Positions 14,252 to 42,334 of a stretch of DNA of 64,000 nt are shown here, piece by piece (the first letter of the stretch is position 1; each line of letters opens with the position of its first letter). The notes beneath the pieces are model-generated. The model made no database searches. It had not been told where the DNA came from and was given only the letters and a program-made list of their open reading frames with translations. The stretch comes from an uncultured Candidatus Saccharibacteria bacterium (lineage in GTDB: Bacteria > Patescibacteriota > Saccharimonadia > Saccharimonadales > Saccharimonadaceae), in the NCBI GenBank assembly GCA_963517665.1, contig CAUQFZ010000001.1:37182-101181 (forward strand), read 5' to 3'. Both the position numbers and the translations under genes were made by a program.

Positions 14252-14255
<4 letters not shown>
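13374..14255 (+). CDS. atpG: ATP synthase subunit gamma
   Basis: ITKAMQLVAASK, SDKGLAG, RMMAMKNATDNA, RQGAITQEL. Confidence 0.97.
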
Positions 14256-16043
<1,788 letters not shown>

Positions 16044-19020: not shown

Positions 19021-19064
19021 AAAAAGGAGAAAACCCCCTCACTCTCGCCATTGAGAATGAGGGG
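19021..19064 (-). terminator. Intrinsic terminator of the structured transcript
   Basis: CCCCUCAUUCUC-AAUGGC-GAGAGUGAGGGG followed by GUUUUCUCCUUUUUU. Confidence 0.7.
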
Positions 19065-19180
19065 CGCTGGTGGGCTCAAGCGGTTCTGCTCGGAGTTGAT
19101 CTCGACGGTGAGAAAAACTGCCACGAGTGAATCTCGCGAACCCGGGGAGGGAGAGATGACACGCCATTGTGCCATCTCAG

Positions 19181-19250
19181 TGGATGTGACGGGAGTCAAA
19201 CCCGCGAGACGGTGGACTTCGAATGTCCTGTCTCCCTACCTGGCACACCC
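19181..19250 (-). ncRNA. D-armless tRNA-like element with G3-U70 and A73
   Basis: GGGTGTG/CACATCC-A acceptor stem; T-arm GCGGG-TTTGACT-CCCGT; helix GAGAC..GGAC-ATTCGAA-GTCC..GTCTC. Confidence 0.6.
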
Positions 19251-19453
19251 TGACCATTCTGTGTTGAAAACATTGGTCTTCTCGATGTAGCGGTATACAC
19301 CCGCTTTGGTTTGTCGTACGCCATTGGACCACAAAACAAAGCTGAGAAGTCAATGAAACTCGGGCGGAGTGGTGGAAACACCCAAGTTTTTTCGCTTACA
19401 TACGGCTTCACACGGGTGATGAGTCCGTGTGACTGCGCATGCAACCGCGACGG

Positions 19454-19541
19454 CGGACACAGCGGGACTCGAACCCGCAGCCTCCCGTTGCGTCGACACC
19501 GTTGTCGACGCGGGCGCTCTGCCGATTAGAGCTATATGTCC
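19454..19541 (-). tRNA. tRNA-like gene with a 14-nt-extended anticodon arm (mimic or pseudo-tRNA; isotype unassignable)
   Basis: GGACATA/TGTGTCC; TA-GCTC-TAATCGGCA-GAGC; AGGCT variable loop; GCGGG-TTCGAGT-CCCGC; 31-nt anticodon arm. Confidence 0.7.
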
Positions 19542-19662
19542 TGTGATTCTTTTCTGGGCTACCAGCTGGGCGAATCACCCCAGGGGCGGACAGACGCCCT
19601 TTACTGACCGCGGAGGTCAGTGGTTTCGGGGTCGCACAAACCCCAACTGTCGTATTGTGGTG

Positions 19663-19791
19663 TTACACCATGAAATGCCCGCAGTATGGGCACTTAAACT
19701 GTGTACCGGCATCTCCAGGACGCCTATACGCAACATGGTGGTTTCTACCACTGCATGTCATTGCAGTGGTATAATCTCCGTAGCTATACAT
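19663..19791 (-). CDS. Putative 42-aa CPxCG zinc-finger microprotein
   Basis: Manual translation MYSYGDYTTAMTCSGRNHHVAYRRPGDAGTQFKCPYCGHFMV*. Confidence 0.45.
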   Translation of the reverse strand: MYSYGDYTTAMTCSGRNHHVAYRRPGDAGTQFKCPYCGHFMV

Positions 19792-19970
19792 TGATGCTAC
19801 GGGATAAGAGAAAAACACCAAGGGTTTCACCCCCTTCCCGCCGCAGTTGCGGCAAAAGAAAAAGAGCTAACCCTCTCTCGAACCATGCTTTTGTGCGAAG
19901 CATGGTCAGGACTTGACGCCATTTGCGGCGTCTTGTCGAGAGTTAGCTCCATGAACAAAAGCTAATAGAT

Positions 19971-19999
19971 ATCATAACACGAACTGTAAAAAATAGCAA
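19971..19999 (-). promoter_or_regulatory. Sigma70-type promoter
   Basis: TTGCTA-N17-TATGAT with an extended TG. Confidence 0.7.
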
Positions 20000-28075: not shown

Positions 28076-28150
28076 TGGGCCGTCGCCAAGTGGTAAGGCA
28101 CCAGGTTTTGGTCCTGGCATTCGGGGGTTCGAATCCCTCCGGCCCAGCCA
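28076..28150 (+). tRNA. tRNA-Gln (TTG)
   Basis: TGGGCCG/CGGCCCA-G-CCA; anticodon arm CCAGG-TT-TTG-GT-CCTGG; GTTCGAATC. Confidence 0.97.
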
Positions 28151-42097: not shown

Positions 42098-42334
42098 TGT
42101 AATTACTCTCTCCTCATCCAGGCGGAGTGCCTGTGCCTTCCCTTCAGGAAAAGCACTGCTCTTGGCGCCCGGATGGCGCGTGAGCAAGATGAGGTTTCAA
42201 AGCACTATTTGCCCAATCTGTGTAGACATGCCAAAATAACGCTGCAAAATCTCACCTCGCTCTATTCTCAACTGCTTGTCAACATACAACTTTTGGACAA
42301 AGCCATAAAACTTCGTCAACAAAAGTCTACTATC

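Follow-up and report, generated by a model that had tools for sequence, protein, structure and literature searches.

The element described here lies in a 64,000-nucleotide (nt) stretch of DNA from an uncultured Candidatus Saccharibacteria bacterium (assembly GCA_963517665.1, contig CAUQFZ010000001.1, positions 37,182–101,181; the whole stretch is hereafter called the window), on the minus strand from 19541 to 19454 in the coordinates of the window. It has the body of a tRNA, with a long hairpin (the rod) in the position of the anticodon arm, and this form is referred to as type A. Our analysis identifies type A as a selected, non-decoding, tRNA-shaped RNA module, which is neither a tRNA-Ser nor an intron-bearing tRNA, and which most likely acts as a handle for cutting or binding and not as a reader of codons. 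The module follows without a gap upon a pseudoknotted RNA domain and forms part of a locus of several structured RNAs. An earlier reading made from the sequence alone (the sequence-only reading) had noticed the element and gave no strand for it; the larger structured RNA locus around it was not visible to that reader.

Anatomy of the tRNA-shaped module

The module was recognized by ARAGORN, Rfam, and folding, and its parts were read from the sequence as follows.

19454–19541, minus strand: the type A tRNA-shaped module as a whole
19541–19535 paired with 19461–19455, minus strand: acceptor stem, seven of seven base pairs (bp)
19532–19516, minus strand: D arm, with a 4-bp stem and a 9-nt loop containing GG
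19514–19484, minus strand: the 31-nt rod, with 4 bp plus 8 bp, an ACGG loop, and a 3-nt bulge on the 3′ strand
19483–19479, minus strand: variable loop of 5 nt
19478–19462, minus strand: T arm, with a 5-bp stem and the loop UUCGAGU
19454, minus strand: discriminator G, followed by CC-G at 19453–19451, with no encoded CCA

Residues U8-A9 follow the acceptor stem, in which the third pair is A3-U70. Type A has the cloverleaf framework of a class I tRNA (7-bp acceptor stem, D arm with G18G19, and T arm with a UUCRANY loop), and what it does not have is the 5-bp anticodon stem and 7-nt loop (U33, anticodon, purine 37) of a canonical tRNA, since that position is taken up by 31 nt in place of the usual 17 and is closed by a loop of only 4 nt. 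These observations confirmed what the sequence-only reading had described, namely, an intact tRNA body (acceptor stem, U8-A9, D arm with GG, 5-nt variable loop, and T arm), a 31-nt hairpin instead of the 17-nt anticodon arm, and a 3′ end reading G-CC-G in a window whose tRNA-Gln gene (28076–28150) encodes CCA.

The Rfam tRNA model (RF00005) aligned with the module from end to end, with a score of 45.9 bits (gathering score 29) and an E value of 1.3e-6 for the 64-kb window, and the alignment placed 23 nt inside the anticodon stem where the model has 9. The minimum free energy of the module was −44.0 kcal/mol, in comparison with −32.3 ± 3.4 kcal/mol for shuffled sequences (z = −3.49), and none of the 200 shuffles was as stable. 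ARAGORN, a check that the sequence-only reading had proposed, did call a tRNA here, tRNA-Ser(cga), but this is a forced parse: as read from the sequence, only three of the five pairs of the anticodon stem are formed, they are drawn from half of the rod, and the variable arm is left unpaired. With respect to parentage, type A came closest to tRNA-Ala(UGC), although the lead was small (21 vs. 18).

The module in the context of its host genome

The host genome (G000) comprises 786,446 bp in seven contigs and has a completeness score of 99.9%. ARAGORN reported 44 tRNA genes in it, the type A element included, and the remaining 43 cover all 20 amino acids. Ser-GGA, Ser-UGA, Ser-GCU, and Ser-CGA are all among them, the last as a separate gene at C2:106335, and CCA is encoded in all 43. 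A CCA-adding enzyme (PF01743) was not found in the host genome, with 10 of 10 bacterial controls responding to the search; RNase Z (TIGR02651) was likewise not found there (14 of 14 controls responding), and the tRNA-splicing endonuclease (PF01974) gave no matches in it (four of four archaeal controls responding). RNase P is present, both as its RNA (269 bits) and as the protein RnpA. The type A element is therefore unable to be charged or to read codons in the host cell, because it offers neither an anticodon loop nor a CCA end, because the tRNA set is complete without it, and because no CCA-adding enzyme, RNase Z, or splicing endonuclease is detectable.

Two further observations were made on the RNA genes of this genome. 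The tRNA set includes Arg-GCG (G000:C2:105847–105923) and no Arg-ACG, which is unusual, as bacteria as a rule use inosine-modified ACG. In addition, neither the signal recognition particle (SRP) RNA models (RF00169 and RF01854) nor the 6S model matched anywhere in this 99.9% complete genome; an SRP RNA that the models do not recognize may exist.

Conservation of the rod among type A homologs

Full-length matches to type A were found in 11 other species of the genus, with identities of 84%–100%, and the addition of further loci brought the collection to 20 distinct sequences. In a DNA-pattern scan, 40 loci could be taken for true homologs on the strength of the upstream motif, the 11 loci already collected counted in and some 30 coming from the scan itself; the remaining matches were at the level expected by chance according to our own arithmetic. 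Altogether, the type A body is present in 29 of the 84 genomes of the genus that carry the locus. When 150 genomes of the order were searched with the type A model, only ordinary tRNAs of 75–77 nt were retrieved, scoring at most 50.8 bits.

The alignment of homologs, another check named by the sequence-only reading, showed that the rod is kept. Placed on the cloverleaf-with-rod structure, the 20 distinct sequences had 98.5% of their cells paired, and a rod of 12–15 bp was found in every one of them. In four of the 20, 3 extra nt are present on the 5′ strand opposite the 3-nt bulge, giving a helix of 15 positions in which a C·A is the only mismatch. Across all 12 species of alignment A1, no change was seen in the T arm or in the 3′ strand of the acceptor stem, the flanking genes being 74%–94% identical, and CCA is encoded in none of the homologs. 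The sequence-only reading had regarded a hairpin private to this strain as evidence against its proposal; the hairpin is not private, occurring in 29 genomes, but one relative (G207) does have a near-canonical cloverleaf with CCA in the same place. The proposal itself, a non-decoding tRNA mimic, is well supported by the lack of a 7-nt loop and of CCA, by the complete tRNA set, and by a conserved rod with its compensating 3-nt indel.

That the element is a real decoding tRNA, either a tRNA-Ser(CGA) or one made functional by the removal of an intron of ∼14 nt, is extremely improbable. Although ARAGORN calls it and, as read from the sequence, the excision of 14 nt would produce a loop of 7 nt with U-CGA in it, the Ser parse pairs only three of the five positions of the anticodon stem and leaves the variable arm unfolded, the D arm is of class I, unlike those of the four genuine tRNA-Ser genes, and the genome already has a Ser-CGA gene. 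Close homologs are called Ser(cga), Val(gac), or nothing at all by ARAGORN. The short unusual intron suggested by the sequence-only reading fares no better: a bulge-helix-bulge needs two 3-nt bulges 4 bp apart, of which one is present, this bulge is filled in four of the 20 variants, and neither a splicing endonuclease, nor CCA, nor a CCA-adding enzyme was found in the host genome.

A pseudoknotted RNA domain precedes the module

Immediately 5′ of the module is a second structured element.

19542–19651, minus strand: pseudoknotted RNA domain of ∼110 nt, abutting +1 of the type A module without a gap

This domain is a real structured RNA with strong covariation, present in a single copy and seen only in this genus. 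It is made up of a pseudoknot between its 5′ end and the loop of P3, the hairpins P1–P5, an A-rich stretch, and the invariant leader GAAUCA. On an alignment of 39 distinct sequences (A3), RNAalifold predicted three helices, with compensatory changes in nine of 17 pairs, and a fuller helix model was 96.2% paired. Double-sided changes were observed in 11 pairs of these helices, a number reached by seven of 500 shuffles, while the 66 double-change cells and the covariation score (0.211 vs. 0.113) were each reached by none of the 500, and slid controls were far lower. The 5′ pseudoknot alone was 99.5% paired, with double-sided change in two of its five pairs and 11 double-change cells, and again none of the 500 shuffles had as many cells. 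The leader is also complementary to the loop of P4 (UGAUUC); this pairing varies only by wobble, so that covariation is uninformative about it either way.

No Rfam family matched the domain at E ≤ 1. Of 120 other genomes of the genus, 83 gave a match to the covariance model built for it, each with a single copy, and the domain is present in 54 of the 72 high-quality genomes of the genus, G000 counted. The same model gave no match in 150 other genomes of the order, with three other genera of the family among them.

Small coding sequences were noticed just upstream of the domain. In the window, an open reading frame (ORF) of 32 codons with a zinc-ribbon-like Cys pair (19663–19761, minus strand) stops 11 nt before it. 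Mini-ORFs with a Cys pair, belonging to several unrelated families, end 10–15 nt before the domain in at least eight of 50 loci, and another was seen in G264. In this last genome (locus L204), only the 3′ half of the domain (P4, P5, and the leader) is present, joined to a rod-type body, and the end of a zinc-ribbon ORF stands in place of the 5′ half.

Interchangeable bodies share one slot

The place directly behind the domain is a syntenic slot shared by at least six unrelated body designs. The census of these bodies covered the 84 genomes of the genus with a match to the domain model.

Body A, 29 genomes: D arm and long rod, the form in this window
Body D, 18 genomes: short, with a 9- to 10-bp rod and a tetraloop
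Body C, 11 genomes
Body B′, 9 genomes
Body B, 5 genomes: without a D arm, with a 7-nt loop
Body E, 1 genome (G207): near-canonical cloverleaf with ACCA and the loop CCAAAAG, called "Phe(aaa)" by ARAGORN
Leader found, body unparsed: 3 genomes
Leader not found by the search pattern: 8 genomes

All 73 parsed bodies, a count that takes two off-by-one parses as corrected, have an acceptor stem of 7 bp and a T stem of 5 bp, together with a loop of the UUCGANU type and an R-C-Y tail. What the designs have in common is limited to this minihelix of acceptor and T arm together with its tail. Over 47 distinct bodies of all designs, the 12 pairs of the acceptor and T stems were 98.8% paired, a figure that is inflated and partly circular, as the parser demanded at least six of seven and four of five pairs. 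Nine of these 12 pairs showed double-sided change, in 73 cells, and none of 1000 shuffles was as high. The position of the anticodon arm is occupied by a rod of 9–15 bp with a tetraloop, helical rods being kept in most designs. The body of G207 has a C1-G72/A73 acceptor, like the tRNA-Pro genes of the host genome.

The remainder of the locus and its neighbors

The locus is flanked on the same strand by an addA-like gene for a UvrD/PD-(D/E)XK helicase-nuclease (23325→20017) and by the dihydrouridine synthase gene dus (19002→17887), and the ∼1 kb between these genes is noncoding. Its modules follow in the order pseudoknot domain, slot body, an optional spacer with a second tRNA-like module (module B), a hairpin (H), a cloverleaf ending in ACCA (T3), and a terminator. 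Those downstream from type A are the following.

19251–19451, minus strand: spacer of ∼200 nt separating module A from module B, confined to the A-spacer-B arrangement
19182–19250, minus strand: module B, a tRNA-like element without a D arm, with a 7-bp acceptor stem containing G3·U70, A73, and the tail A-CUG
19154–19177, minus strand: hairpin H, with a 10-bp stem, between the tRNA-like modules and T3 (read by eye)
19068–19143, minus strand: T3, a four-arm cloverleaf of 76 nt ending in A-CCA, with a pyrimidine at −1
19025–19064, minus strand: intrinsic terminator with a 12-bp stem and a U-rich tail, just before the start codon of dus (19002)

Module B is found 202–213 nt after A in at least 14 of the 29 type A genomes, and the others proceed straight to the hairpin. 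It has a long bulged hairpin with a 7-nt loop (AUUCGAA) and the T arm CGGG-UUUGACU-CCCG, and its matches to known families were weak, with 23.5 bits for the tRNA-like part of the transfer-messenger RNA (tmRNA) model and 14.5 bits (E = 5.7) for the tRNA-Sec model. At the matching place in three relatives (L002, L006, and L008), ARAGORN called a tRNA-Arg(tcg) of 71 nt, and in five genomes bodies of the B type stand in the slot itself. Among genomes of the A-spacer-B kind the spacer is conserved, and it includes a hairpin of 8 bp (∼19433–19410). Hairpin H, as read by eye, is replaced in other lineages by other hairpins or by a larger insert.

T3 does not have the D-loop and T-loop consensus, and no Rfam family matched it at E ≤ 10. 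Its minimum free energy structure is the cloverleaf (−27.6 kcal/mol, z = −2.15), which was 96.6% paired over 14 distinct sequences. Double-sided change was observed in four of its pairs, a number reached by four of 500 shuffles, and in eight cells, reached by none of the 500; among these changes is that of acceptor pair G3-C70 to A3-U70. The stem of the terminator differs in sequence among relatives yet still pairs, as judged by eye. In four relatives (loci L201, L202, L203, and L205, of genomes G230, G030, G004, and G006), a gene carrying a Fic-type motif, as recognized by eye in its DNA, sits between the terminator of T3 and dus, and because of this gene the RNA locus and dus are separable. 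T3 is kept in two of them (G030 and G004), although the domain model finds nothing there.

Several other identities were considered and rejected. The locus is not the tmRNA, the true one being elsewhere (C2:17553–17937, 84 bits), and the upstream domain is not the RNase P RNA, which also has its own place in the host genome. SRP RNA, 6S RNA, or any other Rfam identity was discarded, with no family matching the locus at E ≤ 1 to 10. The idea that the T3 region is a small ORF preceding dus was also dropped, since, by eye, G000 and G010 do not have the frame in common and the terminator stem varies in the manner of paired RNA and not of codons. Neither was a phage or viral origin supported. With a 5-kb query, the sole match among phage records was one of 127 nt within dus, and the 39 matches to a loose leader pattern in viral contigs scored at most 13.2 bits with the domain model and yielded nothing with the type A model; they are therefore chance matches. 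Nor is the locus what is left of a tRNA cluster generally located upstream of dus, a tRNA having been called in only one of 29 loci from other genera. This lone tRNA, a tRNA-Pro(UGG), belongs to an unpublished genome (G069), publication of which is subject to the permission of its depositors, and nothing else depends on it; it agrees with the Pro-like acceptor (C1-G72/A73) seen in the body of G207.

Other features were observed farther upstream and elsewhere in the window. A promoter-like site, TTGCTA-17-TATGAT with TG, lies just past the stop codon of addA (19999–19971, minus strand). It is followed by a three-way-junction fold of ∼100 nt (∼19950–19854, minus strand) that ends in a U tract and may be a separate small RNA. 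The region 19844–19999 (minus strand) is conserved in the genus, and its only Rfam match was a sub-threshold one, to ctRNA, on the terminal hairpin (23.8 bits). A RAGATH-10 RNA is present at 42105–42198 (minus strand), with 88.8 bits, well over the gathering score, and an ORF of 126 amino acids with a nucleoside 2-deoxyribosyltransferase-like domain (14252–14632, plus strand) is located between the genes for the gamma and beta subunits of ATP synthase.

A possible handle for RNase P, and the alternatives

We tentatively favor, while giving it less than even chances, the reading in which type A is a recognition handle for RNase P within a multi-module noncoding RNA, because what all designs have kept is what bacterial RNase P recognizes in a substrate. 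From the anatomy, the conservation and covariation, and the enzyme inventory, we infer that the locus is transcribed and that RNase P would cut it at the junction of the leader and +1, between 19542 and 19541. Such a cut would release the pseudoknot RNA or define its 3′ end, and would separate the modules, whose products may have roles of their own. The rod and the missing CCA, in a cell without a CCA-adding enzyme or RNase Z, would keep the module out of translation, and the anticodon arm would be free to change so long as it remains helical. According to excerpts of PMC4919922, residues R73, C74, and C75 of the substrate pair with the GGU of L15 in bacterial RNase P RNA, and the tail G-C-C of type A fits this rule, GGU being taken as that of the general bacterial L15. 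For the R-C-Y bodies with U at position 75, wobble pairing to the same GGU would still be possible. The coaxial helix of acceptor and T arm expected of an RNase P substrate, ∼12 bp and capped by a T loop, is also found in type A (7 + 5 bp).

A number of points weigh against this reading. The residue at −1 of type A is A (A, G, or C in relatives), and at this position of the 43 real tRNAs of the host, U occurs 29 times and C 10 times; U(−1) is also what RNase P prefers in the excerpts of PMC4919922. The favored leader, single-stranded and with U at −1, is not the one offered by type A, and if the leader does pair with the invariant P4 loop, it would not be in the single-stranded form bound by RnpA. 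A long and well-paired rod is not obviously needed by a mere RNase P handle, yet it is maintained in most designs. The two-enzyme pathway known for mascRNA (see below) probably does not apply as such, RNase Z having not been found in the host genome. Within type A, variation is nearly all one-sided and toward G·U, with a single double-sided change that did not exceed the shuffles, and nucleotide covariation within this type alone is weak. The circular component of the pairing figure for all bodies, mentioned above, counts on the same side. An RNase P processing signal had been among the suggestions of the sequence-only reading, and it has become the preferred, conjectural one, although the purine at −1 argues against an optimal substrate.

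T3, with its pyrimidine at −1 and full RCCA, looks a better RNase P substrate than the slot module. There is therefore real room for another, rather doubtful, reading, in which RNase P cuts only T3 and the pseudoknot and slot module stay joined as an integral tRNA-mimic domain that presents its elbow or minihelix to a tRNA-binding protein. The partner could be an enzyme modifying the T loop or the D loop, such as the neighboring Dus, or the small Cys-rich protein encoded upstream. The purine at −1 of the slot element would agree with this, as would the structural maintenance of the rod in most designs and the complementarity of the leader to the P4 loop, by which the domain may stack on the acceptor stem, and the reading would also give a place to the Cys-pair mini-ORFs that end 10–15 nt before the domain in at least eight of the 50 loci and to dus immediately downstream. 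However, the middle of the module, the D arm included, is swapped between close relatives, which would be odd for a specific protein-binding surface, and the RNA is parted from dus by the terminator and, in four genomes, by the Fic gene as well.

The exchange of whole bodies could also mark a hot spot for recombination or integration, at which segments are traded at a tRNA-like gene, the bodies and the tandem A-spacer-B arrangement being scars and the rod having no function. Bodies are indeed replaced wholesale between conserved flanks, several different inserts start right after the 3′ strand of the acceptor, and tandem modules occur in at least 14 of the 29 type A genomes; but the inserts measure only ∼135–290 nt and have no integrase adjacent, both tandem modules are full length and not 3′ fragments, and no homolog was found on phage records or among the viral-contig pattern matches. 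As this reading would account for the variation and not for the intact minihelix, tail, and rods, we consider it improbable. A decaying pseudo-tRNA, that is, a former tRNA gene persisting neutrally with a palindromic insertion in its anticodon arm, is slightly less probable still: the near-canonical cloverleaf of G207, with ACCA and its tRNA-Pro-like acceptor, and the tRNA-Pro upstream of dus in G069, from another genus, would suit it, but neutral decay is difficult to reconcile with a T arm and a 3′ strand of the acceptor that show no change across all 12 species of A1, whose flanking genes have diverged to 74%–94% identity, with helix substitutions that keep pairing, with a 3-nt indel that compensates the bulge, or with a highly reduced genome of only 786 kb. 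Finally, a hypervariable middle within a conserved framework is what an arms race might produce if the element served as a decoy or sponge against host or phage enzymes that target tRNAs (toxins, synthetases). We regard this as very unlikely, since acceptor-end toxins and synthetases are offered no CCA end, and anticodon nucleases, for which the sequence-only reading had imagined a decoy, are offered no anticodon loop; the element is, moreover, single-copy, and no defense or toxin gene is consistently adjacent.

Relation to known RNAs

Non-decoding tRNA-like structures are already known as a class. In mammals, mascRNA and menRNA, at the 3′ ends of MALAT1 and MEN-β, are likewise tRNA-shaped, non-decoding elements located directly 3′ of a structured noncoding RNA. 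Excerpts of PMC4919922 relate that recognition of their tRNA-like fold by RNase P creates the 3′ end of the upstream RNA, and that t-elements of plant mitochondrial transcripts are tRNA-like processing signals in precursor transcripts. The same adjacency was found here, with the pseudoknot domain ending at 19542 and the module starting at 19541, and the Rfam mascRNA-menRNA model gave a weak, sub-threshold match to the T-arm half of type A (17 bits, E = 0.8). Nonetheless, the upstream RNA is here a pseudoknot domain of ∼110 nt, whereas RNAs of the MALAT1 type are long nuclear molecules with a triple helix, and there is no sequence relationship between them. The 3′ end of mascRNA is made by RNase Z, which was not found in this bacterial host, in which RNase P is present, and cleavage is here a prediction. 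The t-elements are organellar and are cut by protein-only RNase P.

The tRNA-like domain of tmRNA is also a minihelix of acceptor and T arm without a decoding arm, accompanied by pseudoknots and processed by RNase P, and the tmRNA model weakly matched both module B and the T arm of A. However, the real tmRNA of the host, and SmpB, lie elsewhere in the genome. The acceptor of tmRNA is formed from distant 5′ and 3′ ends, whereas both acceptor strands are here within ∼90 nt, and type A has neither the alanine identity of tmRNA (G3·U70 and ACCA) nor a tag ORF. Compared by description, the viral tRNA-like structures at the 3′ ends of tymoviruses and tobamoviruses also join tRNA mimicry to pseudoknots, but they end in CCA and are aminoacylated, unlike type A. 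In the bacterial YrlA Y RNAs, a tRNA-like module has a long helix continuing at the position of the anticodon stem; these RNAs, again compared by description, end in the long helix and work with Ro/Rsr. Canonical tRNA (RF00005) shares with type A the acceptor stem, D arm, variable loop, and T arm, above the Rfam threshold; type A differs in having no anticodon stem-loop and no CCA, and in being surplus to a complete decoding set.

According to the searches with the locus, this architecture is absent from Rfam 15, and no description of tRNA-like elements in Saccharibacteria or Patescibacteria was located in the limited library of literature searched. The multi-module structured RNA of Saccharibacteria is apparently undescribed. 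Its novelty lies in bringing together a pseudoknot domain specific to one genus, a tRNA-shaped cassette that is exchangeable and bears a rod where the anticodon arm would be, and a CCA-ended cloverleaf, in a cell in which neither RNase Z nor a CCA-adding enzyme was found.

Implications

A wider interpretation, which we hold to be possible but somewhat doubtful, is that this ultra-small epibiont has a bacterial "RNA operon" specific to its genus, in which exchangeable, non-decoding tRNA-shaped cassettes would serve as RNase P punctuation behind a pseudoknotted RNA. It would be a bacterial counterpart of MALAT1-mascRNA or of the mitochondrial t-elements, the cell itself having lost both RNase Z and the CCA-adding enzyme, and the middles of its cassettes would turn over rapidly, possibly under diversifying selection. 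For genome annotation, the element is a source of error, because both ARAGORN and the Rfam tRNA model mislabel it as a tRNA, with a label that varies from species to species (Ser, Val, "???", or nothing), inflating or confusing the tRNA inventories of reduced genomes.

In genomes smaller than 1 Mb and as densely coding as those of Saccharibacteria, ∼630 nt of noncoding RNA that is both structured and conserved are unlikely to be idle. If the interpretation given here is true, bacteria would have natural tRNA-shaped elements that serve RNA processing or act as handles for proteins and do not decode; more than 40 natural variants would be at hand that keep only the parts of a tRNA relevant to RNase P; and a new pseudoknotted RNA domain would have come to light in a lineage that can now be cultured together with its host.

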